64,000 nucleotides of DNA from positions 2,612 to 66,611 of the forward strand of contig JBIKVZ010000002.1 in NCBI GenBank assembly GCA_044356525.1, given 5' to 3'. The stretch comes from Rickettsiales bacterium. Lineage in GTDB: Bacteria; Pseudomonadota; Alphaproteobacteria; Rickettsiales; RGZB01. The translations under genes were made by a program, and so were the position numbers. Of the stretch, positions 44,853 to 64,000 are shown one piece after another. The first letter of the stretch is position 1; every line of letters starts with the position of its first letter. The notes beneath the pieces are model-generated. The model saw only the letters and a list, made by a program, of their open reading frames with translations, was not told the DNA's origin and made no database searches.

Positions 44853-46415
44853 ATGATGGAAGCAGCGATTTTTAATAGCGAATTATTTATGTCGGCATTC
44901 AAATCGGAATTTACCGTACCGCTACTTGTTGCAGCATTTGGACTATTGCTGTGTGTGGCTTCGTATTATCCCGGCTATGCCATGAACGACAGTATCAGCA
45001 TTTATAAAAGCATTAAATCTGATACTATTGGAGATTGGTTTCCGCCTTGTTTTTCGTTGGTGTGGAGAGAGCTGGATGCCATATGGCCTGGGCAGCAAAC
45101 GCTCTTTTTATTACAAAATATTTTGTACTGGAGCGCTGTTTTTTTAATCGGCTCTACGGTTGCGTATGGACGGGGTGTTAAGGCTGCTATCGTTGCTATA
45201 GGATTTTGCTTTTTTCCATATTTTTTGTTTGGGCTTGGCGTGGTCCAGCGTGAGCCGTTGCTGGCGGCCGCAGTGCTACTGGCTTTTAGCATGCTCTGGT
45301 TTCGTCGTCGTACGGGGCACCTGCACCCGCTTTGGGTTAAAATTGGCGCCAGCGGACTATGTCTTTTTGCTGTTTCCATTCGGCATGAGGCAATCATTAT
45401 ACTGCCATTTTTTGCAGCCTATTTGGTGGTTGAAAAAGGTGATATCCGCCAACTAAAAACATGGAAAAAAATAGGCGCTTTATTTGTGGTGCTGGTAATT
45501 ATGAGCACGGCTGTTTCACAATTTTGTAAGTACTGCACGGACGCAAATAAATCCTATGCTTCCAGTACACTTATTTATTTTGATCTTAAGGGCATCAGCT
45601 ATTTTATGCCCAAAGGGGAGTATGTCAGCTTTGGCGAGTTTGATTCTGAGCAGGCGAAGGAAGTGTACGATGGCCGTGAATGGTCACGCCATTACCTGAC
45701 ACACGATCAAAGAGATATGGATTATTTTAAAATTATCCATCAAAGGCACTGGAGTGATTTACAGGGCGTGAGAAAACTCTGGCTAAGCCTTATTGCTCAG
45801 TATCCGCTCAGTTATCTAAAGCATCGGTTCAATCACTTTATTTATCAGTTGGAAATTAAAGATACGCCGCCGAATGTATTAAAGATTGCAGTTAAATATG
45901 CTGATGATCCCAATGTCATTAATCAAAACTATGATGATTTAGCTAACGCAAAAATAACGGGTGTCGCGGATGTGTTCTATCGCTATGGCATTGCAAAATC
46001 GTGGGGATTTTTTGCGTTTTCGTTTGTTCTACTCTTTTTTTATCGTTGCTTTAAGTCAACTGAGGATAAGGAGTTTTTTCTTGTATTGCTGCTCGGCGGC
46101 ATTACTTACAGCCTAATTTTCTTGATAATTGGCGTTGCGCATCAGGCGCGCTATTTTTTCTGGCACAATGTGGCAACAGTGGTGGCATTAGGTTTGCTAT
46201 GTGCACAGATGGTGCCGCCAGCTACCAGTAAGGCGATGGCAAAGGCTACAAAACCAAAAAAAGCGTATAAGAAGAAGTCGCAAACGAAGAAAAAGAAAGA
46301 ATGGTGCCTCTGGCCGGGGTCGAACCGGCACGTCCCGCAAAGGACAACAGATTTTGAGTCTTATCATCACAACAGCCTACAAATTCCTACAACAAGAAAT
46401 TGTAGGGTTTTCTAG
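44853..46415 (+). CDS. large polytopic membrane protein (GT-C-like?), with 3' end running through the tRNA-Leu att fragment
   Basis: 520 aa with many TM helices and a Lys-rich tail. The last ~38 codons are antisense to the tRNA-Leu fragment (46302-46361) and to island DNA, so the present C-terminus is shaped by the integration junction. Confidence 0.6.
   Translation: MMEAAIFNSELFMSAFKSEFTVPLLVAAFGLLLCVASYYPGYAMNDSISIYKSIKSDTIGDWFPPCFSLVWRELDAIWPGQQTLFLLQNILYWSAVFLIGSTVAYGRGVKAAIVAIGFCFFPYFLFGLGVVQREPLLAAAVLLAFSMLWFRRRTGHLHPLWVKIGASGLCLFAVSIRHEAIIILPFFAAYLVVEKGDIRQLKTWKKIGALFVVLVIMSTAVSQFCKYCTDANKSYASSTLIYFDLKGISYFMPKGEYVSFGEFDSEQAKEVYDGREWSRHYLTHDQRDMDYFKIIHQRHWSDLQGVRKLWLSLIAQYPLSYLKHRFNHFIYQLEIKDTPPNVLKIAVKYADDPNVINQNYDDLANAKITGVADVFYRYGIAKSWGFFAFSFVLLFFYRCFKSTEDKEFFLVLLLGGITYSLIFLIIGVAHQARYFFWHNVATVVALGLLCAQMVPPATSKAMAKATKPKKAYKKKSQTKKKKEWCLWPGSNRHVPQRTTDFESYHHNSLQIPTTRNCRVF
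46302..46361 (-). other. 3' fragment of tRNA-Leu(CAA) (anticodon loop to CCA): island att-site repeat
   Basis: The reverse complement reads AGA-CTCAAAA-TCT, a long variable arm, GCCGG-TTCGACC-CCGGC, then CAGAGGC-A-CCA. The T-arm is perfect and the anticodon is CAA. No matching 5' acceptor/D-arm follows. Confidence 0.85.
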
Positions 46416-46648: not shown

Positions 46649-46882
46649 CTAGGGCTTTAGATAGCGAGCGATGGTGGCACTATCGGGATACTCGCCATAT
46701 CCGCTTTCCAATATTTCGCCCCGCGCGGAAACATCCATCACTCTCCCAGCCTCTGCCTGCTTTGAAAGCAGTACAGATTTCTGATGGTTTGCGCGCACCA
46801 GATGCCAACAGCTTCGGCCGGTGATGTCGCATCCCCTTACCACAGTAATTTCTTCTGGCCTGATTTTTGTTCTTGTCATCAT
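46649..46882 (-). CDS. hypothetical protein (77 aa)
   Basis: The ORF overlaps the stop of the upstream M20 gene by 4 nt (translational coupling). No family recognised. Confidence 0.5.
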   Translation of the reverse strand: MMTRTKIRPEEITVVRGCDITGRSCWHLVRANHQKSVLLSKQAEAGRVMDVSARGEILESGYGEYPDSATIARYLKP

Positions 46883-48294
46883 TGAATACCCGGCGTGCGC
46901 TCTACAAGCGGTGCTGAACCAAATGGAATGATACGGTTGTCAGGTTTGGAAGCGACCAGCTTGTCGCGATCCAAACAAGTTTCGGCGATGGCCGCCAGCA
47001 ACATTTGTGGCCCACGCTTCAGCTGCTCAGGAGTAATAAATTCGTTTTGCGCGTGTGCGCCTTGTGAGAGCAGGCCTGTGCCAAAGACCAGCGTGGTGGC
47101 GCTGGGGAAATGAAACGCAAATCCACCTGCGTCAGAAGCAAAACCTACCGTTTGAGTTTTTGGTTCTTTTTCATTCACCGCAGCATAAATCTGGGCAAAC
47201 GCTTTCACCGCCTCAGGATTTTGAACTGGCAACTGGCGAGAATTTGAAACTAGTGTACGTGAAACTTTTGCTTCCGGCAGGGTGGCATCAGGCGGTGTTT
47301 TTTCTTCCGCCTCTGCCCGGATGAGGCGGTCAAGTTCTGCCACTCTTCTTTGAATGGGCTCCATCAGTTTCTCGAGCGGCATCGCCGGTGTAGTACGCAA
47401 ATGTAGGCTTATTGTGGCACCCGCAGGAATGGTGTTGCCGCTATTGCCAATAGTGACCGTGCCAGCATTTACGATGGGGTAGGGCGGATCAAAATGTGGG
47501 TCGTGATATTGCGAATCTTTCATCAGACGGCTCTGGTAGTCAATAATAAACCCCAGTAAATCGTGCGCGTAATGCAGGGCATTCACCAATTTTTCTGGCT
47601 CAGAAGAATGCCCCCCAATGCCCGTGATTTGAATATTAAGACCAGCCGCACCCTTGTGACTATATACCACCGACTCACCGGTGGGCTCATTCACAATCAC
47701 CATGCGGGGGTTACAGCCTTGCTTAGTGAGTTTTTCACAGACACGGTCTACCCCTTGGCAACCCACTTCCTCACCATATGAGAGTGCAAAATAGACCGGC
47801 TCCTTCAATGTATCGTGCCTCCCTTCATAAAGGCGCGCCACTGCGAGCATATTCAAAATCGCTTGTTTCATATCCACTGCACCCCGACCTACCAAACCAT
47901 ATTCAGCTGAGGTGAGCTTGAAAGGGTCCTGTCCGTTCCAATCGCCCGGAGCGGGCACGACATCAGTGTGTGAGGAAAGAACTACACCAGCAGGTGCAGA
48001 AGATTCTTTAGTGGCATTGCCACCGATTTTCCCAGTGAGCGTGGCTTGCATGATGCCTGACCCTTTGGGGTACTCGTCCTCTTCGGTGTAAAGCGTTTCT
48101 ACTCCTAGGCGATCAAGCTCTCGCTTGAGCGTTTTGACGAATGGCACGTTACTTCTCGCAAGCTCCGGCTTATGCGAGCTTGAGGTATCGTACCCCACCA
48201 GAATTTCTAGTACCTTAATTGCATCCTCCATGGATGCAAAGGTGCCATCTGCATTCAGCGAAAGATTATCAATGTAGGTGGAAAGCATATCCAT
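46879..48294 (-). CDS. M20 family metallopeptidase (ArgE/DapE/acetylornithine deacetylase-like)
   Basis: Metal-binding motifs are LSSHTDVVP, GRGAVDMK and SYGEEVG. The likely start is MDMLSTY at 48294, although the ORF is open to 48375. Confidence 0.8.
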   Translation of the reverse strand: MDMLSTYIDNLSLNADGTFASMEDAIKVLEILVGYDTSSSHKPELARSNVPFVKTLKRELDRLGVETLYTEEDEYPKGSGIMQATLTGKIGGNATKESSAPAGVVLSSHTDVVPAPGDWNGQDPFKLTSAEYGLVGRGAVDMKQAILNMLAVARLYEGRHDTLKEPVYFALSYGEEVGCQGVDRVCEKLTKQGCNPRMVIVNEPTGESVVYSHKGAAGLNIQITGIGGHSSEPEKLVNALHYAHDLLGFIIDYQSRLMKDSQYHDPHFDPPYPIVNAGTVTIGNSGNTIPAGATISLHLRTTPAMPLEKLMEPIQRRVAELDRLIRAEAEEKTPPDATLPEAKVSRTLVSNSRQLPVQNPEAVKAFAQIYAAVNEKEPKTQTVGFASDAGGFAFHFPSATTLVFGTGLLSQGAHAQNEFITPEQLKRGPQMLLAAIAETCLDRDKLVASKPDNRIIPFGSAPLVERTPGIQ

Positions 48295-48374
48295 AGAATC
48301 CCGAGGCCATAAAAGAGCAGTGTAGCAACCTTCAATTAACGAAAGATTAATAGGAAATGCGGGCGTAAACACCA

Positions 48375-48455
48375 AAACAGGTATTGAGTCTATAAATCAG
48401 ATGGTTAATGCCATAATCCGCTTTTTTCACTGTACATCCCTGGATTTGAAGATGT
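48375..48455 (+). repeat. relic copy of the 3' end of the 109-aa gene plus downstream spacer (repeat D; partner E at 60489-60573)
   Basis: 29 of 32 nt are identical over GTATTGAGTCTATAAATCAGATGGTTAATGCC versus 60495-60526. The last codons KQVLSL-stop are preserved, and the alignment continues to ...TTCACTGT...TTTGAA. Confidence 0.8.
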
Positions 48456-48599: not shown

Positions 48600-48674
48600 G
48601 CCTCGATAGCTCAGTTGGTAGAGCAAGGGATTGAAAATCCCTGTGTCGCTGTTCGATTCCGGCTCGAGTCACCA
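48600..48674 (+). tRNA. tRNA-Phe(GAA)-like gene, 75 nt, with aberrant T-stem (possible pseudo-tRNA)
   Basis: GCCTCGA-TA-GCTC-AGTTGGTA-GAGC-A-AGGGA-TTGAAAA-TCCCT is a canonical 5' two-thirds. However, the 5' T-stem strand (CGCTG or GCTG) does not pair with CCGGC, and acceptor pair 2:71 is C:T. Confidence 0.7.
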
Positions 48675-48704: not shown

Positions 48705-49112
48705 ATGGTCGACATTAACATCGTCTATCAGGGTGAGTTACGTTCTGAGGCCACACACGGGCCTTCGGGCACTGTTCTCACCACTGATGCACCTAAAGAC
48801 AATCACGGTAAAGGCGAGAGCTTCTCGCCGACAGATCTGGTGGCAACCGCCCTGGGCAGTTGCATGCTCACAGTGATGGGAATTGCCGCTCGTACACTGC
48901 AAGTAGATTTAAATGGAACCAAGGTGCATGTGAAAAAAGAAATGGCCGCCAAACCCGTGCGCCGTATTGACACACTCACAATCACCATCAATGTGCCCAC
49001 AAAGCTCGATGATAAGAAAAAGCAGCAGCTGACAAAAGCCGCTCTGAGCTGCCCTGTGTATCACAGCCTCCACCCCGATATAAAAACCCCCATCGAATTT
49101 ATCTGGGCATAA
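48705..49112 (+). CDS. OsmC/Ohr family protein
   Basis: 135 aa from the ATG at 48705. OsmC-fold pattern: ...FSPTDLVATALGSCMLTVMG...ALSCPVYHSL with two conserved Cys. Confidence 0.82.
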   Translation: MVDINIVYQGELRSEATHGPSGTVLTTDAPKDNHGKGESFSPTDLVATALGSCMLTVMGIAARTLQVDLNGTKVHVKKEMAAKPVRRIDTLTITINVPTKLDDKKKQQLTKAALSCPVYHSLHPDIKTPIEFIWA

Positions 49113-49118
49113 ATCAGT

Positions 49119-49260
49119 TCGGTTTCCACCTTCACATTCCCACCAATTCGCTCTAGCTTGTGGGCATGTTAGCAGACTCAATCACGGATTTACTTACCGC
49201 TTCGTTGGCTGTATGTTGACTTCAACAGCTATTTCGCGAGCGTGGAACAGCAGTTAAACC
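49119..49260 (+). pseudogene. truncated, frameshifted duplicate of the promoter region and 5' end of the Y-family polymerase gene
   Basis: It aligns by eye with 49679-49817 (TTTCCACCTTCACATTC...CAGACTCAATCAC...TGGCTGTATGTTGA...AACAGCTA...GCGTGGA.CAGCAGTTAAAC). A 4-nt length difference breaks the frame after MLADSITD. Confidence 0.8.
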
Positions 49261-49572: not shown

Positions 49573-49726
49573 TACTTTAATTATAAACATGGTTGTTTTG
49601 TAGGTTATACGCCTTAAATCTATGGCGCCTGCTTTCCCTGCCACAGCTTTTCTAAACGAATATCGCGGCCACAGTCGCTTCAGTTTCCACCTTCACATTC
49701 TCAGTAATTCGCTCTAGCCTGTGGCC

Positions 49727-51004
49727 ATGCTCACAGACTCAATCACCGACTTACCCCTCCGCTGGCTGTATGTTGATTTTAACAGCTACTTTGCCAGCGT
49801 GGAGCAGCAGTTAAACTCCAAATTAAGGGGCAAGCCCGTTGCCGTGGTGCCAGTGGAGACGGATGCCACCAGCGCCATTGCCGCAAGCTATGAGGCCAAG
49901 GCATTCGGGATTAAAACTGGCACCCCCATCTATGAAGCCAAGCGTATGTGCCCAGGACTTATTTGTGTGCTGGCGAAGCATGAGAAGTATGTTGAGTTTC
50001 ATAACCGCATCATTGAAGAGGTGGGGCGGCATATTCCTGTCTCGATTGTAGCTTCGATTGACGAAGTCGCATGCCATCTGATGGACAACGAGACGTCACT
50101 TAAAAAGGTCACCGAGATTGCCGCTTCTATCAAAAAAGGCTTGGCAAAGAATATCGGTGAATATGTGAAATGCTCTATCGGGGTGGCGCCGAATCGCTAC
50201 CTTGCAAAAATTGCTACCGATATGAAAAAGCCGGATGGCTTCACCATCCTGACACCCCAGGATCTGCCCGCTCGCCTGTTTGAGTTAGAGCTTAGGGACC
50301 TGTCAGGTATTGGGCGCAACATGGAGATACGACTTCGCCTTGCTGGCATTGGCACCATCAAGGACCTCTGGGCACTCGATAAAAAGCAGATTCGCAAAGT
50401 ATGGGGCAGTATCTGGGGTGAGCGCATGTGGTATTTCCTGCGTGGGCATGAGCTGCCCGAAGAAGAAACCACTCGCAGCACCATCGGCCATAGCCACGTG
50501 ATGGCCCCTGAGCTGCGCGACCCCGAACAAGCAAAATATGTGGCACGCAGGCTCGTGCTTAAAGCTGCAAGCCGCCTCAGGCGGTTGGGATACTACGCCA
50601 GCGCCTTGTCCTTCTCTACGCGACTGCAAGATGGCCCACGGCTTGAAACGAGTGAACAGTTCTATCGCGCACAGGATAATAAGACAATTCTGGAGGCCTT
50701 TGATAAGGCCTGGACGAACGTGATGCAGGAAGCGAGGAACGCGAAGCTAAAGAAAGTATCCGTAACACTGCATCACCTGACCGCCGCAACAGACATACAG
50801 CCAGAGTTGTTTGAAAGCCTTTCTGATATTGATATGAAGCAGCGCGGGAAAAGTGAAAGGCTCTCCCATGCCATGGACAGACTGAATCATAAATATGGCC
50901 GCGATACCGTCACCGTCGGCATGCTGCCCACGCAAGGTCGTAGCTTTTCAGGCACTAAAATTGCCTTCACCCGCATCCCAGATGCAGAAGAGTTTTTGGA
51001 ATAG
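49727..51004 (+). CDS. Y-family DNA polymerase (DinB/UmuC/ImpB-like)
   Basis: WLYVDFNSYFASVEQ (catalytic DxxxxF[F/Y]), SIDEVA and GVAPNRYLAKIATDMKKPDG motifs. I prefer the ATG at 49727 over the GTG at 49721. Confidence 0.88.
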   Translation: MLTDSITDLPLRWLYVDFNSYFASVEQQLNSKLRGKPVAVVPVETDATSAIAASYEAKAFGIKTGTPIYEAKRMCPGLICVLAKHEKYVEFHNRIIEEVGRHIPVSIVASIDEVACHLMDNETSLKKVTEIAASIKKGLAKNIGEYVKCSIGVAPNRYLAKIATDMKKPDGFTILTPQDLPARLFELELRDLSGIGRNMEIRLRLAGIGTIKDLWALDKKQIRKVWGSIWGERMWYFLRGHELPEEETTRSTIGHSHVMAPELRDPEQAKYVARRLVLKAASRLRRLGYYASALSFSTRLQDGPRLETSEQFYRAQDNKTILEAFDKAWTNVMQEARNAKLKKVSVTLHHLTAATDIQPELFESLSDIDMKQRGKSERLSHAMDRLNHKYGRDTVTVGMLPTQGRSFSGTKIAFTRIPDAEEFLE

Positions 51005-51121: not shown

Positions 51122-51214
51122 GACCCCGTACCCGACTTTTCAAAGTCTGAACCAATACAACTAGCTACCTCTCCGGAAATTTTTTTGTTTTTCACGCAAC
51201 CACCGATGCCTCAC
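51122..51214 (+). repeat. ~92-nt imperfect direct repeat A (partner B at 57541-57632)
   Basis: CCCGACTTTT.AA.G...AATACAAC...CTC.C..GAAATTTTT..TTTTT..ACGCAACC.C.GATGCC is shared in the same order and orientation. Confidence 0.75.
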
Positions 51215-54212: not shown

Positions 54213-54482
54213 TCTGTCTGAGACAACACCAGCGCTTTAGATAAAACGCCCTCTCCAAGGGTTGTGGCTGCCCTTCTCCGTGCGCCCTAAGCCGCACATA
54301 ATTTGTGGTTAAAGAAGGCCAATAGCACCTTGGATAAGGGGGCACTTTTTGGGGATTCCCGGAAGAGATAGTATCCTAAGCCATCTCTTTTCGTCTATTG
54401 CCAACTGGTGGCACCTTGGGGGTACTTACTAAATATGTTTGGCGATCTTGTTTCTGATTTCTATCTATGTATTCTGAATTTT

Positions 54483-55187
54483 ATGAAAATTATCACTTGG
54501 AATTGTAATGGTGCATTTAGAAAAAAGTATCACCTAATTGAAAAGTTAGGTGCTGATATTCTTGTGGTTCAAGAATGTGAGGACCCTTCAAGAGTTGAGG
54601 GCGACTATAAGGACTGGGCTCAAAACTACCTTTGGATTGGTGCAAATAAAAATAAGGGGCTTGGAGTATTCGCAAAAAATCACATTAATCTGAAGAGATT
54701 GGACTTGAATGATGATGGTTTGCAATTATTTCTACCATGCAGAATAAATGGATCCTTTAACTTGATTGCGGTATGGACCAAGCAGGCAAATTCACCGAAT
54801 TTTCGTTACATAGGCCAACTTTGGAAATATTTGCAGTTACATAAAGATAGAATCGCAGCAGATAAGGTAATTATTTGCGGAGATTTTAACAGCAATGTCC
54901 AATGGGATGAATGGGATAGATGGTGGAATCACAGTGACGTAGTTCGAGAATTACAAGATATTAATATATACAGCCTTTATCACGAGCTGACTGGTGAGAA
55001 ACAAGGCCTAGAAAGCATGCCAACTCTTTTCATGCATCGCAAATTGGAAAGGGCGTATCATATAGATTATGCCTTTGCTTCAAAAAGATTATTTGATCTT
55101 GAGATAAATACAATTGAAATTGGAAAGCCGGAAATATGGCTGGAATACAGCGATCATATGCCCGTTGTATTCACGGTTAGTGAATAA
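54483..55187 (+). CDS. endonuclease/exonuclease/phosphatase (EEP, ExoIII-like) family protein
   Basis: 234 aa from the ATG at 54483. Motifs are MKIITWNCNG, VVQE, CGDFN and SDHMPV. Confidence 0.82.
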   Translation: MKIITWNCNGAFRKKYHLIEKLGADILVVQECEDPSRVEGDYKDWAQNYLWIGANKNKGLGVFAKNHINLKRLDLNDDGLQLFLPCRINGSFNLIAVWTKQANSPNFRYIGQLWKYLQLHKDRIAADKVIICGDFNSNVQWDEWDRWWNHSDVVRELQDINIYSLYHELTGEKQGLESMPTLFMHRKLERAYHIDYAFASKRLFDLEINTIEIGKPEIWLEYSDHMPVVFTVSE

Positions 55188-55236
55188 CTAAACCTGATAT
55201 GGTATTAATTTAAGCAAATAAACATAGAGGATTTAG

Positions 55237-55587
55237 ATGTCATCTATTTCAGTTTTAATGCAAAAAGTAATACATTTTCGTGACGAAAGAGACTGGGAAC
55301 AATTCCATAATCCAAAAGACGTGGCTTTATCTCTAGTTCTCGAGGCCGCAGAAGTGATGGAACACTTTCAGTGGAAGAGCGCAGATGAAATAAAAAACCA
55401 TGTCAAAAATCACAAGGAAGAGATCGGCGAAGAGCTGGCGGATGTATTTTATTGGATTCTATTAATGGCCCATGACCTAAAAATAGACCTAGGGAGCGCA
55501 GTAGAAAAAAAGCTAGCTAAAAATGCAGAGAAGTACCCTATTGATAAGGCAAAAGGCTCACATAAAAAATACACAAAAATTAAATAG
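55237..55587 (+). CDS. MazG-like nucleotide pyrophosphohydrolase
   Basis: 116 aa, all-alpha. The EExxE-type metal motifs are LVLEAAEVMEHFQW and IGEELADVFYWILLMA. Confidence 0.78.
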   Translation: MSSISVLMQKVIHFRDERDWEQFHNPKDVALSLVLEAAEVMEHFQWKSADEIKNHVKNHKEEIGEELADVFYWILLMAHDLKIDLGSAVEKKLAKNAEKYPIDKAKGSHKKYTKIK

Positions 55588-55600
55588 AGAGCACCAAACA

Positions 55601-57457
55601 ATGATTGTCTATCAGAGTGAGAAGAGACAGTTCATTGAGGATGTCGTATCTAATTCAATTGAAAAAAAGATTCTTAGTCAGTTTCAGCTAAAGCTAAACA
55701 GAACCACCACTGCGAAGGAGATTAATTCATGGAAAAATTCCATGATGTATATGCAGAATATTCTAATGGATACCGATATTCCAGAAACTTGCGGCGTCGC
55801 TATTGAATATAAAATTCCTCTCACATCTAAGCGTGTAGACTTTATTCTATCTGGAACAAGTGAGGAAAAAGAAGGCTTAGCCATTATTATTGAGCTAAAG
55901 CAGTGGAGTGATGCAAAAAAGACTGATCGTGATGGAATCGTTATCAGTTTTATTGGGGGGCGAGAACGCGAGCTTAGCCACCCTTCTTATCAAGCCTGGT
56001 CTTACGCGGCGATTATCCGAGATTTTAATGAAGCAGTGTATAATGCAAACATACCGATTCATCCCTGCGCGTACCTTCATAACTTTGAGACGAGTAAGGA
56101 TATTTTTAACGACTCCTTCTATAAGGAATATACTGAAAAAGCTCCGGTGTTTTTAAGGGAAGATGCTCTTAAGCTACGTGCCTTTATCAAGCGCCACGTC
56201 AAACATGGTGATAGCGGCGATACCATCTACAAGATAGATTCCGGAAGAATTAGGCCCTCAAAATCATTGGCGGATAAAGTTTCTTCGCTACTTAAGGGCA
56301 ATCAAGAATTTGTCATGATCGATGACCAAAAGGTCGTTTTTGAGGCCGTGCTTTCTTATACGCGGCTACCCAATAAGAAGAAAACAGTCATCATCGTGGA
56401 TGGTGGACCAGGTACTGGGAAGACCGTGGTTGCAATGAATTTACTATCGAAACTACTTAATGAAGGAAAAAACGCACAATATGTGACCAAAAACTCAGCA
56501 CCACGAAGTGTGTATGAGGCAAAGCTGGTTGCAGATTTCAAAAAAAGTGCCATATCCAACCTTTTCAGTGGCTCAGGGGCTTATACCGCAACAGAGCCTA
56601 ATACTTTTGATATTTTAATTGTAGATGAGGCACACAGGCTAAATGAAAAATCTGGCATGTTTCAAAACTTAGGTGAGAACCAGGTAAAAGAGCTTATTAA
56701 TTCATCATCTCATACTGTATTTTTTATTGATGAGAACCAAAAAGTTTCCCTCAAGGACATTGGCACAAAAGAAGAAATTGAGAAATGGGCGGGGATTCTA
56801 AATGCAGATGTTGTACACCTTGAATTAGCCTCGCAATTCAGATGCAATGGATCTGACGGATATATTGCATGGTTAGATAACACACTGCAAATTAAGGAAA
56901 CAGCCAATGAAACGCTAGAGGGTATTGATTATGATTTTCGCATAGTTTCTAGCCCCTCGGAACTTCGTGATTTGATAGTTGAGAAAAATAAAATCAATAA
57001 TCGCGCACGCCTTGTGGCGGGGTATTGTTGGGATTGGAAAAGCAAAAAAGATCACAATGCTTATGACATCGTTTTTCATGAATTTAATTTTCAAATGAGA
57101 TGGAATCTTACAGACGATGGAATGTTATGGATTATGAAGAAAGAATCCGTCGACCAGGTTGGCTGTATACATACCTGTCAAGGGCTCGAGCTTGATTATG
57201 TGGGCGTGATAATTGGCGATGATATGACCTACACTAATGGAGCTGTTCAGACCAATGTACTTAAACGATCAACAAATGACTCCACTATAAAAGGTTACAA
57301 AAAGCTTCTCAGGGAAAAGCCTATAGATGGAGCTCGCCAATTAGATGTGCTCATTAAGAATACATATCGCACCTTAATGACTCGTGGCATGAAGGGATGC
57401 TACGTTTATTGTGTAGACAAAGGATTAGAGGACTATCTTAGAAAGAAGTTGGAATAG
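55601..57457 (+). CDS. PD-(D/E)xK nuclease-like N-domain fused to a DUF2075-type (Schlafen-helicase-like) P-loop ATPase
   Basis: 618 aa from the ATG at 55601. The N-terminus has E69...D80 (RVDF)...E98-L-K100 (IIIELK). Walker A is GGPGTGKT (268-275) and Walker B is IVDEAHR (340-346). The C-terminal ...TRGMKGCYVYC is typical of DUF2075 proteins. Confidence 0.75.
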   Translation: MIVYQSEKRQFIEDVVSNSIEKKILSQFQLKLNRTTTAKEINSWKNSMMYMQNILMDTDIPETCGVAIEYKIPLTSKRVDFILSGTSEEKEGLAIIIELKQWSDAKKTDRDGIVISFIGGRERELSHPSYQAWSYAAIIRDFNEAVYNANIPIHPCAYLHNFETSKDIFNDSFYKEYTEKAPVFLREDALKLRAFIKRHVKHGDSGDTIYKIDSGRIRPSKSLADKVSSLLKGNQEFVMIDDQKVVFEAVLSYTRLPNKKKTVIIVDGGPGTGKTVVAMNLLSKLLNEGKNAQYVTKNSAPRSVYEAKLVADFKKSAISNLFSGSGAYTATEPNTFDILIVDEAHRLNEKSGMFQNLGENQVKELINSSSHTVFFIDENQKVSLKDIGTKEEIEKWAGILNADVVHLELASQFRCNGSDGYIAWLDNTLQIKETANETLEGIDYDFRIVSSPSELRDLIVEKNKINNRARLVAGYCWDWKSKKDHNAYDIVFHEFNFQMRWNLTDDGMLWIMKKESVDQVGCIHTCQGLELDYVGVIIGDDMTYTNGAVQTNVLKRSTNDSTIKGYKKLLREKPIDGARQLDVLIKNTYRTLMTRGMKGCYVYCVDKGLEDYLRKKLE

Positions 57458-57540: not shown

Positions 57541-57632
57541 ACCCCACCCCGACTTTTTAAGCTCAGCGTTAATACAACCCACCCTCTCACCAGAAATTTT
57601 TAATTTTTTGTACGCAACCGCTGATGCCGCAG
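57541..57632 (+). repeat. ~92-nt imperfect direct repeat B (partner A at 51122-51214)
   Basis: See repeat A. It lies between the convergent stops of the DUF2075 gene and the PLD nuclease gene. Confidence 0.75.
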
Positions 57633-57634
57633 AA

Positions 57635-58156
57635 CTAATACTTCGGCTTATACTCCTCAGCCTCATCCCAGAGCTTATTCCAATTATCTAGATACTTCTT
57701 GGCGAGTTCTTGGGTGTCTTTGATAACCAAAACATTCTCTGCGTTCTTCTTTTCAGCAGCCTTTGAATAGTTAAAGCTACCCTGCTGCACATCCTTGCCG
57801 TCAATGACCATGTATTTGTTGTGCATGATGGCGTACTTATCATTGATGCGGGTGGGCACCCCCATGTTCGCCAAGAAGGTTGCAGATGTGTATTTTGCTG
57901 TTCTTTGGCTTTTATCCAGAACGACCTTAACATCCACCCCTTTTTTGTGGGCCTCCACTAAGGCCTTTGCTATGGGCTCAGAGGTGAACGAATAGGCTGC
58001 GACCCTGATGCTTACCTGTGCCGCAGAAATGGTCTGTACTATAAGCTCTGTGCCACCTCCATTGGGGGAGAATGCAACCTTATAGCCAACATCCGCTCCG
58101 AAGGCTGCAGGGGCACTAAAAGCAATCAACAGAATTAGTATTCGAATGTATTTCAT
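57635..58156 (-). CDS. secreted phospholipase-D-family endonuclease (Nuc-like)
   Basis: 173 aa with a signal peptide (MKYIRILILLIAFSAPAAFG) and a single HKD motif (HNKYMVIDGKDVQQGSFNYS). The size is as in plasmid Nuc nucleases. Confidence 0.85.
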   Translation of the reverse strand: MKYIRILILLIAFSAPAAFGADVGYKVAFSPNGGGTELIVQTISAAQVSIRVAAYSFTSEPIAKALVEAHKKGVDVKVVLDKSQRTAKYTSATFLANMGVPTRINDKYAIMHNKYMVIDGKDVQQGSFNYSKAAEKKNAENVLVIKDTQELAKKYLDNWNKLWDEAEEYKPKY

Positions 58157-58215
58157 GCGCGTTTCAGTATGGCGTATCTGGCTATAATTATCACCAGATA
58201 CGCCTGTTTACGTAA

Positions 58216-59550
58216 TCAAGTCAACTTTCTTGCAAAGCAAAGACCGTCTTGCGTACTGATAGTATTTTTTAATTTTAGGTTGATGACATACTCATAGACT
58301 TGTTCATAAGGCTCTGAACTTTTACTAATACGCTCTTTCTTGATCCAGGCATAATCTTCAGCATTGCCTTTTATTAGACCGTTTTTTAACAGATAATCAG
58401 AATAATCAAGGCCGTGAAGAGTGGGTTGTATTTTCCAATTCTTTATATCTTGGATTCTATCAATGAACTCAGAATCAGTGCCGAATAGAGAACTGGGTGA
58501 GTAAAGGAAAGGAGTTGCAAAGAGACCTTCGTCTATCAGCTGCCTTATCTGCTTATCGTATGAGACAATATTGGAGGCCGGGATCCTGAATTTACTAAGT
58601 TGAAGATTTACATTTGGATGATTTCTGTGGTTATAAAAACAAACATTCCCACACTTAAATTTTAAAGCATCCTCTAGCTTTATTCTTTCGCAATTCAGGC
58701 TATCAAAGCTAAAGCCAAAACTGTAGATATCTTTAGCTTTATAGAGTGCATCTTGAATCTCTTTTAAATTATGATCATCTTCATGAGTAATCCGGATACT
58801 TTCTGCTGATTCCACCACTTGTCTTCCGAAGATTCTAAAATTGTTTTCTCCACGCACAATGGGCCTGAATTTAACCTCCCCGTATACATGAAGTATTTTT
58901 ACATAATCTCTATAATCTACCCCTTTAAAAAGCTCAGAATGTTTATTGAAGTTGCTCTCAAGATAAATCTCTAAGGAGGTATCATAGTTGAAGGTAATAA
59001 CTGTTAGCTGATCCTTTATTAAATCATCTCCAGAATTTGCACCTTTCTTTATTTGCTGTATTAAACGCCCGTACCAGCCACTTTCATTAGATGGCGATAT
59101 CTTTGGATTATAATCTACATTATTTTCCTGAAAAGATTTTTTACATGCCAGATGCCTAAGAATTTCCAATGCTATATACAGCTTACCTATTTTTTGCTGG
59201 CCTGGATTTTCTCGAAGAAAAGCGTCAATACTCCGATGTTGGTCAATAGTAGCTTCTAAGCCCTTAAGTAGATTGGTGTGAAAATTAGCCTGCTTATAGG
59301 CTTGTATTGCCGCATTTTCCTCATTGTCATGAGAGCTTCCCCATAAGTAACTGATAAGGGCCTGGTATGGATGTAATCCAAAATCATTTTCTTTTCTTTT
59401 TTCGGCCCATGGGGCGCCTGTTATTATTTCATCAAGTTTTAATGTTCTTAGCCCATTTATGATGTTTTTTACTAAAGCGTCGCCAAGCGGAAAGTCGTAG
59501 TCCAGACTTGCTCCTGCGCCTAGTATTATGACTGTTGGCTCTGTAAACAT
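58216..59550 (-). CDS. SIR2-like (SIR2_2-type) domain protein with an uncharacterised C-terminal region
   Basis: 444 aa. The ordered motifs GAGAS (11-15), FNYD (187-190), HVYG (221-224) and FGFSFDS (278-284) parallel the ThsA/DSR SIR2 motifs (GAGxS, TTNYD, HG, GFSFxD). Confidence 0.7.
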   Translation of the reverse strand: MFTEPTVIILGAGASLDYDFPLGDALVKNIINGLRTLKLDEIITGAPWAEKRKENDFGLHPYQALISYLWGSSHDNEENAAIQAYKQANFHTNLLKGLEATIDQHRSIDAFLRENPGQQKIGKLYIALEILRHLACKKSFQENNVDYNPKISPSNESGWYGRLIQQIKKGANSGDDLIKDQLTVITFNYDTSLEIYLESNFNKHSELFKGVDYRDYVKILHVYGEVKFRPIVRGENNFRIFGRQVVESAESIRITHEDDHNLKEIQDALYKAKDIYSFGFSFDSLNCERIKLEDALKFKCGNVCFYNHRNHPNVNLQLSKFRIPASNIVSYDKQIRQLIDEGLFATPFLYSPSSLFGTDSEFIDRIQDIKNWKIQPTLHGLDYSDYLLKNGLIKGNAEDYAWIKKERISKSSEPYEQVYEYVINLKLKNTISTQDGLCFARKLT

Positions 59551-59557
59551 TATCTTC

Positions 59558-60103
59558 TTATTTTTTCCACAAATAGAGAATTAATACGGCAACAGGTATC
59601 AGAAATGCATAAGCAAAAAGCAATTGCTTTAACGGGCTTAGGCCCTCAAATTTTTTGTTAAACATTTGAAGTCTTTTAACAGTTTCCAGGCCTGATAAGT
59701 AATTTTTATATTGGTCAAAAGAGCCCCCATCGATGATCTGGTTGATGCCTATAAATACAGCCAAGCAAAGCATGGGTACATATGCCATTTCACTCCTCAG
59801 TGGGCTGCAGCCGTGGTTGTGATAGCAACCGATGCTTAAGATCCAAATTGTAATTGCAATTACACTGTAAGCACCAAGCAGCCATGGGAGTTTTTTATTT
59901 TCCATCGCCCAGCGCCAGGCATATGTAGTCCATACGGGTGAGGTGACTAAGGCATAATAAAACATCTGCATGATTAGCGGCGTACGACGAGCCAACTCAT
60001 TAGCGAGGTCATACGAGATGGGTAGTGCCGCAACCATCCATATAGCGGATAGTGCTATGGCAATTTTTCTTTTATCAATTTTTTGCTGTTTCTCGCTGCC
60101 CAT
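59558..60103 (-). CDS. polytopic membrane protein (181 aa, ~5 TM)
   Basis: Hydrophobic helices run throughout. The stop is 7 nt upstream of the SIR2-like gene start, so the two are probably co-transcribed. No family recognised. Confidence 0.6.
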   Translation of the reverse strand: MGSEKQQKIDKRKIAIALSAIWMVAALPISYDLANELARRTPLIMQMFYYALVTSPVWTTYAWRWAMENKKLPWLLGAYSVIAITIWILSIGCYHNHGCSPLRSEMAYVPMLCLAVFIGINQIIDGGSFDQYKNYLSGLETVKRLQMFNKKFEGLSPLKQLLFAYAFLIPVAVLILYLWKK

Positions 60104-60179
60104 GAATACTATGCCCCTGCTGCATAATTTGGATAAATGAATTATAATCGGAAGGAATCAATTTAATACAAGGAATTCT

Positions 60180-60509
60180 ATGTCTAGAGGTGGCGCAAGG
60201 CCGGGAGCAGGTAGGAAGCCGGGCAGTAAGCTAACTAAGACCGCTGCCATTGCTCATAAGCTCGCGGAGGAGGGGGTAACGCCGCTTGAGTATGTGCTGA
60301 CCCTGATGCGGGATGAATCGCAGCCAGCAGAGCTACGGCTTGAGTGTGCAAAGACGGCAATGCCGTATATCCATCCCCGTATACAGGTTCAGAGCATTAC
60401 GCAGAACAACATGCAGGTGAACAATTACGGCAGCGATGGGCTTAAAAAAGTGCTGGAACAAGTGGAGCAAATTCACGCACTCGGCATGAAACAAGTATTA
60501 AGTCTATAA
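60180..60509 (+). CDS. phage/satellite-type small protein (GARPGAGRKPG N-terminus)
   Basis: 109 aa. MSRGGARPGAGRKPG...TPLEYVL.LMRD...PY.HPR is a pattern I associate with prophage or terminase-small-subunit-like proteins. The function is not established. Confidence 0.55.
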   Translation: MSRGGARPGAGRKPGSKLTKTAAIAHKLAEEGVTPLEYVLTLMRDESQPAELRLECAKTAMPYIHPRIQVQSITQNNMQVNNYGSDGLKKVLEQVEQIHALGMKQVLSL

Positions 60510-60573
60510 ATCAGTTGGTTATTGCCGCATATCGGCTTTGTTTCACTGTTTATATCCCCGTGTTTGAAACATG
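60489..60573 (+). repeat. repeat E (partner D at 48375-48455)
   Basis: It covers the last codons of the 109-aa gene plus the spacer before the primase-helicase stop. See repeat D. Confidence 0.8.
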
Positions 60574-60580
60574 AAACAGC

Positions 60581-62077
60581 CTACTTTTTCTTCTTCAGCA
60601 GCCGATTCACCTTCGCCGCACTACAGCCTAACTCCTCGGCTATTTCGCGTTGTTTGTACCCATCAGCATGCAGCGCGAATACTTTCTCACTCAGACTATC
60701 TTCCAGGTCCTTTACAGCCCACTCAAAAGCCCCATCCTTCAAAATAGATGTTGCCTCAAAAGGCTTTGCTTTCTCTCCATAAAAACCGCGTGCCTTTTCG
60801 TAATGCACCTCAAAACTTGCGCCTTTCTGTTGGTCGTGGTCGTTTGGATTTTTTAGCGCTATTACGGTGTCGAGTAAGTCCTCGCGCTTTGAAGTGCCCC
60901 TTTGAAGTCCGCCCTTACCTGCATGGTGCACGATCAGCACAGATATTCCTCTTCTGCGCCATGATAAAAGAAGCTCCTGTATGGGCATCCAAGACTCTGC
61001 CTCATTCTCTTTCCCTTTTCGAGCTAGGGCCGAAAGGTTGTCTAATATTATAAGATCAACCCCATTGGTATGTTGTTCGATCGCATCCCTGCCTTCTTCT
61101 GAACACAAATCCGGCATTCCAACCTCCTGCATATCGGGCGTAATCAATTTAAAGTAATCTTGACTCGGCATTTCGTTTAGGCTGTTGCCCGAAAGGTCTT
61201 TCAACCTTTTTTGCATGTCCACAGCCGTCATCTCACCATCTATATATAAAACTCTGCTTGGCTTGGTGGCCTTCCACCTTCCCCCTAGAGTTGCCGCCCC
61301 TTTTGCTACGGCTACAGCTATGGATAAAGCCACATACGTCTTACCAATCCCACGCGGGGCATACAGCATGACGAGCCCCTGCTTAGGTATGATGGGGTCA
61401 ACGATTATTTCTCGCGGCGGGATCTTTAGGCTAAGGAAGCTTTCCAGGGTAAGGCTTTTGAGAAGTGTTTTCTTTGCGGCAGAAGCGGCGTTGGCAAGGT
61501 AGGCCTTCGCGCGCTCCTGGTCCCAGCCTTCTTCCAACGCATCTGCAGCGTCCCACCCTTTCGGCTTATCTTCCGAGACTGGCAGTACTTTGACCGAAGA
61601 AACAATAGGTCGCAGTAGCTCAACCAGCGCATCGGCATATTTTTTACCCGCCTCATCAGCATCAGGCCAGATGACAACATCCTTATTGGCCAGGGGGGTT
61701 AAATCGGTTTTGTGCGCCGCATTACAGCCACCGGAGGTGGTAATGCACGGGAGATGAGAAAACAGTTTCTGAGCTGCATCGGCCGCTTTCTCACCTTCGC
61801 ATACAATAACAGGCTCATTCGCTTGGTTGCTTAGTCTGTCCAGGCCGTAGAGTGGTCGCGGTTCAGGCCAGATCTTTTTCTGCCAGCCGCTACCACCATC
61901 CTGATCACCCCAAAAAGTGTAAGGAACTATATCCTTGCCACCTTCCTTGTCATAACGACAGACCACCCCAAGCAACGCCCCACTTGCATCCCGATACTCA
62001 AATTGGGTTGAGGGATTTCCTGTAGGGGGCAACCCAGCTGACTCTGGCACCGGCTTTATTAACTGTGCTTCAATCAT
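60581..62077 (-). CDS. Toprim-primase / RecA-like (AAA_25-type) helicase with C-terminal HTH
   Basis: 498 aa. Toprim motifs are VIVCEGEKAADAA and VVIWPDADEAGKKYA. Walker A is APRGIGKT and Walker B is LIILDNLSAL. The C-terminal HTH is KQREIAEELGCSAAKVNRLLKK. Confidence 0.8.
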   Translation of the reverse strand: MIEAQLIKPVPESAGLPPTGNPSTQFEYRDASGALLGVVCRYDKEGGKDIVPYTFWGDQDGGSGWQKKIWPEPRPLYGLDRLSNQANEPVIVCEGEKAADAAQKLFSHLPCITTSGGCNAAHKTDLTPLANKDVVIWPDADEAGKKYADALVELLRPIVSSVKVLPVSEDKPKGWDAADALEEGWDQERAKAYLANAASAAKKTLLKSLTLESFLSLKIPPREIIVDPIIPKQGLVMLYAPRGIGKTYVALSIAVAVAKGAATLGGRWKATKPSRVLYIDGEMTAVDMQKRLKDLSGNSLNEMPSQDYFKLITPDMQEVGMPDLCSEEGRDAIEQHTNGVDLIILDNLSALARKGKENEAESWMPIQELLLSWRRRGISVLIVHHAGKGGLQRGTSKREDLLDTVIALKNPNDHDQQKGASFEVHYEKARGFYGEKAKPFEATSILKDGAFEWAVKDLEDSLSEKVFALHADGYKQREIAEELGCSAAKVNRLLKKKK

Positions 62078-62393: not shown

Positions 62394-62609
62394 TTACTGA
62401 GCCCCCTTGCTGTCGGGGTGGTTATTGCTAGCCCAATCAAGGAATGCCTGCTCGTCAACCAGTACAGTGCGACCCACGCGCTTTACACACTTTGCAAAAC
62501 CATTTTCATGCTCGTGAAAAATCAGGTGTCGCAATCCACCTATAGGCGGCCAGACGTGATAATCATTCCATTTTGTGACAGGGATGAGGCGTGTTTTTCT
62601 TTCTTCCAT
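62394..62609 (-). CDS. AlpA/excisionase-like DNA-binding protein
   Basis: 71 aa. The W.PIGGLRHLIF....NGF..CVKRVGRTVLVDEQAFLDW pattern is typical of small excisionase/regulators of integrative elements. Confidence 0.6.
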   Translation of the reverse strand: MEERKTRLIPVTKWNDYHVWPPIGGLRHLIFHEHENGFAKCVKRVGRTVLVDEQAFLDWASNNHPDSKGAQ

Positions 62610-62697: not shown

Positions 62698-63246
62698 TTA
62701 CTTTTGGGGTCGCCCAGCCTTCAGAATCTTGTTTTGTTTTTTATGGCAGTGGCTCTTGTACTTTTCTGCTACATTTTTAAATGTGCGTTCAAACGCTTCT
62801 ACGGCATTAGATAAGGCTTCTTCTGAGGAATCAATTTTACCCTCAGTTGTTTTAGATGCTGGATAATGCTGATCCCTCAGCTCATGGAAGAATGTTGGAT
62901 CATCTTTTTTAACGCCCGCTTTTTTGACCATGGCCCTTACGGCTTCCCCTGTTATACCAAGCATGGTGGCGGCGGTCTTCGTATGAGTTTTATCGTCTAT
63001 GAAACCGTCTTTACACAAGAGAGTCCGCATCGCAACAAGTTCTAGTAGAGCAGGTGGGGTTTTGGGCTGACCGCGACCTCTTCTTGGCTCTTCTGCAACC
63101 AGCTTTTCTACACCATCCTCTATATCTTTAATTACGTACTTTGGGCAGGGCATCCCGGCTTCTGAGCTTTTTTTCAAATCGTCTATGGACGCAATCAACT
63201 GCCAATACGTATTACTCATTTCTTGCTCCTTTGATAAATTTATCAT
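62698..63246 (-). CDS. hypothetical island protein
   Basis: 182 aa (or 173 aa from MSNTYWQ at 63219). It overlaps the integrase stop. No family recognised. Confidence 0.5.
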   Translation of the reverse strand: MINLSKEQEMSNTYWQLIASIDDLKKSSEAGMPCPKYVIKDIEDGVEKLVAEEPRRGRGQPKTPPALLELVAMRTLLCKDGFIDDKTHTKTAATMLGITGEAVRAMVKKAGVKKDDPTFFHELRDQHYPASKTTEGKIDSSEEALSNAVEAFERTFKNVAEKYKSHCHKKQNKILKAGRPQK

Positions 63247-64000
63247 TCATTCTCCTTACGACCTCAGATGTGTGTGAGTCGGATAGATGCGCATAGCGCT
63301 TAACCATCTGCAGCGTTTTATGGCCAAGCACCTCCGCAATCTCTGCCAAGCTTGCGCCGCTCATGACTAGATAGGAGGCAGCACAGTGCCGCAAATCATG
63401 GAATCGAAAGTCATTTATGCCCGCTGTATCTAATGCCTTTAGCCAAGCACCCCTGATCGATGCTGGTTTCTTTTTGCTGTGCAGGGAGTGGAATATAAGG
63501 CCAGTCTTAAGGTCGATATTTTTTCTGCGACAAACCATTTCGCTCAAAACTGGGCCTTCAATTGGAACCCTTCTGCGTTCACCATTTTTGGTCTGTTCAA
63601 GAATTACGAAACCTTTGTCGAGGTCTAAGTTTTCCCAGCGAATGCTCAATATTTCTCCGAGGCGCATACCGGTTGATACGGCTAGCATCACTATTGGATA
63701 AAGATTCCTGGTTTTTGATTGCTCACAAGCATCCAAGAGACGGAACAAATCATCATCATTCAGAAACCGCACTCGCCCTCTGGGCTCTTTTGGTCGCCGT
63801 ACCTTATTAACTGGATTACTATCCAGCCACGCCCATTCCTTGACCGCGATAGTAAAGGCATGAGAAAGGGCAGCCATGTAGCGCACAACAGTAGAGGGGC
63901 TTCGCCTAATTCCTGGCCGCCCTTCTTCTGCAAGGAGTCTGTCTCTGACCTCTGCTATAAGGGAAGGGCTGATGTCAGAGAGTAAATAACAGCCGAGTTC
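63212..64000 (-). CDS. int: tyrosine recombinase/integrase (5' end beyond window)
   Basis: Catalytic region motifs are ...TGMRLGEIL..., HDLRHCAASYLVMSG and LGHKTLQMVKRYAHL. The frame stays open upstream of the listed Met to position 64000 (ELGCYLLSDISPSLIAEVRDRLL...). Confidence 0.9.
   Translation of the reverse strand, partial: ELGCYLLSDISPSLIAEVRDRLLAEEGRPGIRRSPSTVVRYMAALSHAFTIAVKEWAWLDSNPVNKVRRPKEPRGRVRFLNDDDLFRLLDACEQSKTRNLYPIVMLAVSTGMRLGEILSIRWENLDLDKGFVILEQTKNGERRRVPIEGPVLSEMVCRRKNIDLKTGLIFHSLHSKKKPASIRGAWLKALDTAGINDFRFHDLRHCAASYLVMSGASLAEIAEVLGHKTLQMVKRYAHLSDSHTSEVVRRMNDKFIKGARNE

Follow-up and report, generated by a model that had tools for sequence, protein, structure and literature searches.

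The 64,000 nucleotides analysed here (contig JBIKVZ010000002.1 of a Rickettsiales bacterium, called the window below) run at their far end into a genomic island, in which a minus-strand gene of 444 codons (58216-59550) encodes a protein resembling SIR2. We give about an even chance to the reading that this protein is a stand-alone, AbiH-like, NAD+-consuming anti-phage enzyme of an uncharacterised family, and that the membrane protein encoded just upstream of it is an accessory specific to this element, not defining for the family. We favour this reading because the motifs of the protein are invariant in the 120 relatives aligned, because the folds matched by its model are those of sirtuins only, and because no neighbour recurs in 103 loci of the family; the mobile-element and defence contexts of the relatives, the hypervariable slot holding the gene and the precedents of AbiH and of the P4 hotspots point in the same direction. 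In the proposed mechanism, the GAGAS loop and the site made up of TFNYD and H221 would bind NAD+, and the enzyme would be a self-contained sensor-effector: phage infection would trigger the consumption of NAD+, through a NADase or an ADP-ribosyltransferase activity, and the infection would be aborted. The membrane protein may tether or restrain the enzyme via the ~95-residue tail at the C-terminus of the latter. Taken as a whole, the analysis makes a role of the SIR2-like gene as defence cargo plausible.

The 444-residue protein was confirmed to be a genuine, if divergent, member of the SIR2 superfamily, with intact NAD-loop and Asn/Asp motifs. Four motifs follow one another in the right order, G11AGAS15, F187NYD190, H221VYG224 and F278GFSFDS284, as a sequence-only reading of this DNA had proposed, and they do not occur by chance: GAGAS (11-15), TFNYD (186-190), H221 and G224 are invariant in all 120 relatives of the alignment, and G279 and N286, at the two ends of the GFSFD..N motif (279-286), are kept in 117 of them, the remaining three being gapped there. 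The insert between the first two motifs, which had been singled out for its unusual length, is helical, measures ~145 residues (about 36-180) and is specific to the family. The conserved core goes from residue 1 to ~345, with residues 290-345 still belonging to it, and the C-terminal part without relatives, first estimated at ~150 residues, shrinks accordingly to a tail of ~95-100 residues (about 346-444) peculiar to the window protein. This tail is predicted with low confidence, is absent from 336 relatives and showed no similarity to any open reading frame (ORF) of 190 loci or to the C-terminal domains found in the family of the membrane protein. Among profile models, the PADLOC "SIR2" model matched residues 2-38 only (E = 8e-5), the NCBIfam models gave nothing, and no specific model of PADLOC 2.0 or NCBIfam was matched, in agreement with the earlier view of a candidate for something undescribed.

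The AlphaFold model of the protein, built with 52 sequences, reaches a pLDDT (predicted local distance difference test) of 80, residues 1-350 being well ordered. When this model was compared with the PDB by Foldseek, all the matches at E ≤ 0.001 were sirtuin chains of SIR2-HerA/Nezha; further matches were KomC, SPARSA, ThsA and DSR2, followed by the classical sirtuins CobB and SIRT3. The TM-scores of these matches were modest (0.3-0.5), and only SIR2 folds were matched. HVYG had been taken for a variant of the catalytic His motif; H221 and G224 are indeed invariant, but the canonical His slot is occupied by Y223. In the HMMER alignment to KomC, Y223 lies opposite the catalytic H146, which is replaced in the PDB entry "KomC(H146N)", the two glycines coincide, and the GAGVS and TTNYD of KomC align with GAGAS and TFNYD of the window protein. 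The invariant H221 lies two residues upstream of Y223 on the same strand, Y223 being in the canonical catalytic-His slot before the glycine. At position 223 the family presents Y (75%), H (16%) or N (9%).

A search of 5.8 billion proteins returned 337 relatives, the nearest of which is 34% identical and most of which have 300-420 residues. When 52 family members were scanned, 51 matched the PADLOC SIR2 model and 23 matched Pfam SIR2_2 (E ≤ 0.01). Relatives are distributed among bacteria, a lineage of the candidate phyla radiation (CPR), an archaeon, plasmids, prophage-like contigs and integrative elements. Their genomic contexts were sampled at 80 genome loci, 24 loci on as many IMG/VR contigs, two plasmid loci and three metagenome contexts of closer relatives, and the tests reported below were made on 103 non-redundant loci from genomes, prophage-like contigs, plasmids and metagenomes. 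In an all-against-all BLAST of the genes up to three positions away at the genome loci, no cluster of neighbours was present in more than three loci, and Pfam and PADLOC scans of 131 immediate neighbours showed no family in more than two. The family is an uncharacterised one without a fixed gene partner. About one tenth of the immediate neighbours match restriction-modification (RM), SoFic, PbeA or PDC models; these defence-like neighbours comprise type I and type IIG RM, type IV restriction, SoFic, PbeA and PDC candidates, and the relative on pAtC58 has a restriction endonuclease adjoining it and a Fic protein nearby. In an unrelated integrative element, the 30%-identical relative P0017 stands alone, next to a PrimPol-DUF3987 primase and an integrase and without an adjoining membrane gene, which indicates that the same kind of slot can carry a SIR2 gene by itself. 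Two other arrangements were seen among the relatives: at locus L093 (172-2284) the gene of an SRAP (SOS-response peptidase) protein overlaps the SIR2-like gene by 8 nt, and at L034 (5986-7899) and L062 (4243-6978) SIR2-like paralogues form tandem or divergent pairs.

In the window the SIR2-like gene is not alone. The sequence-only reading described three minus-strand ORFs separated by gaps of 7 and 59 nt, and these were recovered at their places: the gene of the 181-residue membrane protein (59558-60103), the SIR2-like gene, and a gene of 173 codons for a Nuc-type nuclease of the PLD family (57635-58156). The first two are separated by the 7-nt spacer GAAGATA (59551-59557, minus strand), read directly from the sequence between the stop codon of the membrane-protein gene (TAA, 59560-59558) and the ATG of the SIR2-like gene, and a Shine-Dalgarno-like run, AAGAAG, overlaps this TAA. 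Given the spacing and the position of the run over the stop codon, the two genes are likely co-transcribed and probably translationally coupled. Their G+C contents (41.8% for the membrane-protein gene and 36.9% for the SIR2-like gene) are low in comparison with the 49.7% of window positions 1-54000, as had been noted, which fits a location in the AT-rich accessory part of an integrated mobile element. The native promoter that had been placed in 60104-60179 was not recovered: the consensus scan of this 76-nt divergent intergenic region, upstream of the membrane-protein gene, found no promoter, and what is there is a TATAAT hexamer (60141-60146, minus strand), a possible -10 element 37 nt upstream of the start codon of the membrane-protein gene, without a well-spaced -35.

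Such a layout invites the proposal, made in the sequence-only reading, that the five-helix membrane protein and the SIR2 enzyme constitute an obligate two-gene abortive-infection system, which we judge unlikely. The 7-nt spacing with its Shine-Dalgarno-like run, the similarly low G+C of the two genes, and the ~95-residue tail, which could be a docking module, speak for it, but the pairing was not found elsewhere. A profile of the membrane-protein family (hmmsearch --max, with E up to 10 and up to 1 in two runs) detected no member at any of the 103 loci of SIR2 relatives, and no SIR2 gene was present in the contexts of the membrane-protein relatives (0 of the 6 loci L083-L088, a test which rests on these six loci only). 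Proteins with at least two transmembrane helices adjoin the SIR2-like gene on the same strand at 7 of the 103 loci, a background frequency (6.1% per gene), and they are mutually unrelated. The pair itself is known from one element only, present in three contigs that are 100% identical; a megablast search of all complete E. coli genomes with the 57.5-60.2 kb segment gave no match, and we found no published description of such a pair in the literature. The power of this synteny test is limited, both families being sparse and the nearest SIR2 relatives lying on very short contigs. On the comparative evidence, a conserved system made of these two genes is not supported, a lack of synteny elsewhere being one of the outcomes that the sequence-only reading had itself named as refuting it. 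More generally, two unusual genes in a tight operon do not by themselves amount to a system, and here the synteny test argues against one.

The membrane protein was also characterized separately. Its model (pLDDT 85) shows five long hydrophobic helices, predicted to be transmembrane, and an amphipathic helix (129-152), which agrees with the polytopic protein of about five transmembrane segments first described; four of the helices form an N-terminal module and are followed by the amphipathic helix and then by the fifth transmembrane helix. Compared with the PDB, this model gave no significant fold match (best E = 0.25), and Pfam, PADLOC, NCBIfam and PHROG contained no match to the protein. When 5.8 billion proteins were searched by word index, the single sequence found only itself, and the single sequence and the profile together found only itself and two remote relatives, while an exhaustive HMMER search of 1.84 billion representatives yielded 25 remote relatives (E from 1e-13 to 7e-4). 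Most of them align in the same register over the N-terminal ~120 residues, that is over the four-helix module, in which W22, P28, F48, P56, W58, W63, W65 and P110 are conserved. These relatives (P0124-P0148) have 128-488 residues, and their C-terminal regions are of four or more unrelated families, without a SIR2-like one among them; Pfam gave nothing credible for the family. The positive-inside rule would place the N-terminus, the MENKK loop and the segment 124-156 in the cytoplasm, and with them the variable domains of the relatives; we infer that the N-terminus, the K/R-rich loops and the variable-domain side of the protein face the cytoplasm. With its fusions to four or more unrelated C-terminal domains, the membrane module represents a small new family that deserves attention by itself.

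There are further arguments for a partnership. In other proteins, variable cytoplasmic domains are attached to the module, which would thus act as a membrane anchor for soluble modules; one member of its family, P0126, comes after an AAA_25 replication gene in a different element; and systems combining an enzyme with a membrane protein have been validated in P4 hotspots (PMC9122126). The unique tail of the enzyme leaves room for a real interaction with the membrane protein. The obligate pair could work in either of two ways: the membrane protein would sense envelope or injection events and activate the NADase, or the SIR2 protein would sense the infection and the membrane protein would kill the cell. 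A little less probable again is a membrane-coupled NADase switch, in which the tail would dock on the cytoplasmic face of the four-helix anchor, whose family normally brings a variable cytoplasmic domain of its own, and phage-induced membrane events such as injection or holin action would release or activate the enzyme. If true, this switch would be the split-gene version of an unrecognised family of membrane-anchored conflict proteins.

To return to a stand-alone defence enzyme with an element-specific accessory, several observations weigh against it. The Pfam SIR2_2 match of the window protein (E = 2.6e-4, 21.5 bits) remains under the gathering score of 24.5 bits; with a tyrosine in the canonical His slot, the chemistry may differ from that of known NADases; tblastn of the SIR2-like protein against GenBank phages gave no match; and many relatives have housekeeping genes, such as those of LepA or thiolase, around them. 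Moreover, the closest relatives, P0002-P0016 (28-34% identity), are on contigs of 1.2-2.6 kb, so that a partner in the closest clade could not be seen, and the tight spacing together with the unique C-terminal tail is what a true partnership would look like, so that the word accessory may understate the role of the membrane protein. The housekeeping surroundings and the variant His motif, suggestive of another chemistry, are also what would be expected if the protein were not immune at all but acted as a deacylase or ADP-ribosyltransferase in the regulation of the element or of the host, as an addiction toxin, or as an effector directed at the host. The occurrence of relatives in Legionella longbeachae, L. 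waltersii, Rickettsiales and Holosporales and the overlap of one of them with an SRAP gene go in the same direction. We nevertheless hold such a non-immune function to be doubtful, because the patchy spread across phyla, with sites in prophages, plasmids and integrative elements, is the usual signature of defence and conflict genes, and because the best fold matches are defence sirtuins rather than deacetylases, though CobB and SIRT3 match as well.

If the protein proves to be an active, phage-triggered consumer of NAD+, it would represent a compact single-gene sirtuin defence missed by PADLOC 2.0 and NCBIfam, the window protein itself also being under the Pfam cut-off, in a family which spans many phyla, an archaeon, plasmids and prophages. 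The invariant histidine, placed two residues ahead of its usual position, would in that case bear on the catalysis of sirtuin NADases.

The third gene of the strand begins 59 nt after the SIR2-like gene, and whether it belonged to the same unit had been left in doubt from the start, with good reason. Its product (~170 residues) has a Sec-type signal peptide and a single intact HxK..D..GSxN (HKD) motif, and it matches PLDc_2 (E = 1e-27), phrog_12711 over its full length (E = 8e-49) and, weakly, NucT and DrmC. Homologues are ubiquitous on plasmids, with at least 5000 records, most of them conjugative, and the best ones listed are 47-59% identical. Between the stop codon of the SIR2-like gene and the start codon of the PLD gene lies a perfect palindrome, GGCGTATCTGG-N12-CCAGATACGCC (58171-58204), found once in the window, with arms of 11 nt; as RNA it forms a 12-bp stem of -22 kcal/mol (z = -4.7, none of 200 shuffles being as good), and no T-tract stands behind it. 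Its loop contains an AT-rich, -10-like sequence ~30 nt ahead of the start codon of the PLD gene. The palindrome marks a boundary of the unit, and it may be an operator or promoter for the PLD gene, an RNA processing site or a terminator-like element.

A single three-gene unit, in which the PLD nuclease would be a second effector, could be argued from the common strand, the 59-nt gap without a T-tract terminator, and the PLD nucleases known in the DISARM, Mokosh and Pbe systems. We consider it very improbable, since the signal peptide and the ubiquitous plasmid family of Nuc type, the G+C of the PLD gene (46.4%, that is 9.5 points above that of the SIR2-like gene) and the palindrome between the two all stand against it. 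In addition, no PLD family was annotated or recurrent among the neighbours listed for the SIR2 relatives, and the elements with a related primase contained no relative of the membrane protein, the SIR2-like protein or the PLD nuclease. The strong palindrome and the higher G+C set the PLD gene apart as a separate one outside the SIR2 unit, most likely an unrelated, independently mobile gene for a periplasmic Nuc-type enzyme.

All these genes reside in an island whose limits could be established. The tyrosine integrase (63212-64000, minus strand, Phage_integrase E = 8e-34) continues past the end of the window, its full gene having 367 codons, and adjoins an intact tRNA-Leu(CAA) just outside (L001, 4876-4964). 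The 3' part of this tRNA (L001, 4905-4966) recurs as a perfect 62-bp copy, the far attachment (att) repeat, which blastn located at 46300-46361 on the minus strand and which has no second copy in the window; a nearer att copy at ~54.3 kb, where two metagenome contigs break, was considered and rejected, the only copy being that at 46300-46361. In a related genome (L186, 84% identical over 13.7 kb), the sequence is colinear up to 46361 and then passes directly to the tRNA-Leu and gltB, and this empty site (13583-13671 of L186) shows that the segment from 46362 to ~64585 is one insertion at tRNA-Leu(CAA). The island is therefore a single 18.3-kb insertion bounded by 62-bp direct repeats, larger than the ~10 kb first attributed to the element.

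The replication protein of the element is a primase of 498 residues (60581-62077, minus strand) with a Toprim domain, an AAA_25 ATPase and a C-terminal helix-turn-helix; it matches AAA_25 (E = 1.6e-30), Toprim, DUF6371 and the primase/helicase family phrog_239 (E = 1.6e-37). Another ORF of 498 codons (46879-48375), examined as a second copy of this primase, turned out to be an M20 peptidase unrelated to it. Between integrase and primase, a protein of 71 residues (62394-62609, minus strand) is kept in related elements, with 40-47% identity by tblastn in L123, L124, L125, L127, L131, L132 and L142, six of which have an integrase upstream; Pfam and PHROG profiles gave no match, and its position would suit an excisionase or an AlpA-like regulator. 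On the plus strand, divergent from the operon of the membrane protein and the SIR2-like protein, a TerS-like gene of 109 codons (60180-60509) matches phrog_15261 (E = 2e-19) and phrog_641, a terminase small subunit (E = 3.7e-5), and a 50%-identical homologue follows the primase in L121. A related primase was found at 66 metagenome loci, several of which have the same order of integrase, 71-residue gene and primase. For 21 of these elements the sequence extended far enough to show what follows the primase: this part is hypervariable, 93 of its 104 protein clusters being singletons, and its G+C tends to lie below that of the core. A ~480-residue protein with AAA_14 and ATPase_2 recurs in the variable region of six related elements (with DUF234 in two). 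Large MobA/MobL-AAA_30 relaxases occur in three related elements (L125, L131 and L171), and TraD is also found, which indicates that the element class includes integrative mobilisable elements. The Pfam and PHROG scans of the element proteins showed no capsid, Psu or Sid-type profile. The designation of the element as satellite-like is only weakly supported: an integrase and a primase are present, the one match in its favour is the weak TerS-like one, and the relaxases of its relatives point to mobilisable islands, so that the class does not consist of phage satellites only.

The remainder of the island is heterogeneous. A trio of AT-rich plus-strand genes (54435-57457, G+C 37-39%), convergent with the SIR2 operon, encodes by Pfam a nuclease/phosphatase of the EEP family, a MazG-like pyrophosphatase and a helicase of Schlafen group 3 (DUF2075). 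The helicase matches the PADLOC models PDC-S41 (E = 5.5e-20), AbiO and Nhi, and the trio is probably another candidate defence module, distinct from the SIR2 operon. Genes of host-like G+C are also present, namely the M20 peptidase, a tRNA-Phe (48600-48674), a UmuC-like gene and a NagB-like fusion. The island also contains small ORFs. Two non-coding similarities were observed within the island, one between 48375-48450 and 60489-60568 (81% over 80 nt), whose two sides are the region upstream of the tRNA-Phe and the DNA separating the TerS-like gene from the primase, and the other between 51131-51213 and 57548-57631 (71% over 84 nt); they could be what is left of an earlier related element, or repeats internal to the island. 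In addition, a diverged duplication of ~160 nt (49100-49259 and 49661-49816, 80-87% identity) lies upstream of, and overlaps, the start of the UmuC-like gene (49721-51004).

Compared with known systems, the best fold match of the SIR2-like protein is SIR2-HerA (Nezha), with a Foldseek E of 8e-6 over ~400 residues including the helical insert, and the two share the motif series GAGxS, NYD and G..D..N. They differ in that the island contains no gene for a HerA ATPase, the only ATPases near the SIR2-like gene being the AAA_25 primase and, on the other strand, the DUF2075 helicase; in addition, the identity is 12-14%, the TM-scores are 0.32-0.42, and the His motif of the window protein is shifted. 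ThsA, DSR1/DSR2, SPARSA-SIR2 and KomC (Kongming) are likewise NAD+-consuming effectors of SIR2 fold with the same aligned motifs, whereas the window locus is devoid of a SLOG or Macro domain, a TIR protein of ThsB type, a large sensor domain, pAgo/APAZ, and KomA or KomB. As regards Thoeris, neither SLOG or Macro nor TIR ThsB was matched by Pfam or PADLOC on the 444-residue protein or on the island ORFs scanned, and the initial statement that the locus has no TIR, HerA, pAgo or STAND partner remains valid. In KomC, the catalytic H146 aligns with Y223 and not with H221. DSR2 is a self-contained sensor-NADase shown to abort infection through NAD+ consumption. DSR1 and DSR2 have ~1000 residues with a large C-terminal sensor, while the window protein has 444 residues and a tail of ~95. 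As for the downstream nuclease, it has the same size, signal peptide and HKD motif as the Nuc endonuclease of conjugative plasmids, but is carried by a chromosomal island.

AbiH is a single-gene, sirtuin-like abortive-infection (Abi) system of Lactococcus proposed to deplete NAD+, and it resembles the window family as a stand-alone protein of ~350 residues with a sirtuin-like fold and no fixed partner, found on integrative elements (PMC13064643). The two differ in several respects: the window protein has no match to Pfam AbiH (PF14253) at E ≤ 0.1, and only 3 of the 52 family members have a weak one (best E = 9e-4); the window protein has an upstream transmembrane gene and a unique C-terminal tail; and protection is an established property of AbiH but a predicted one of the window family. 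Finally, the hotspots of P4 satellites carry SIR2 genes, and those of P4 and P2 carry pairs of an enzyme and a transmembrane protein (PMC9122126). The element of the window is not demonstrably P4-like, since it has no Psu, Delta or Sid and its relatives have relaxases, and its pair differs from the hotspot pairs by the enzyme class and by not being recurrent. With the HAD-like hydrolase, TIR and reverse transcriptase (RT)-nitrilase of these hotspots, each accompanied by a transmembrane protein, it nevertheless shares the combination of a soluble enzyme with a polytopic membrane protein, encoded by a small operon in the variable slot of a small integrative element (PMC9122126).

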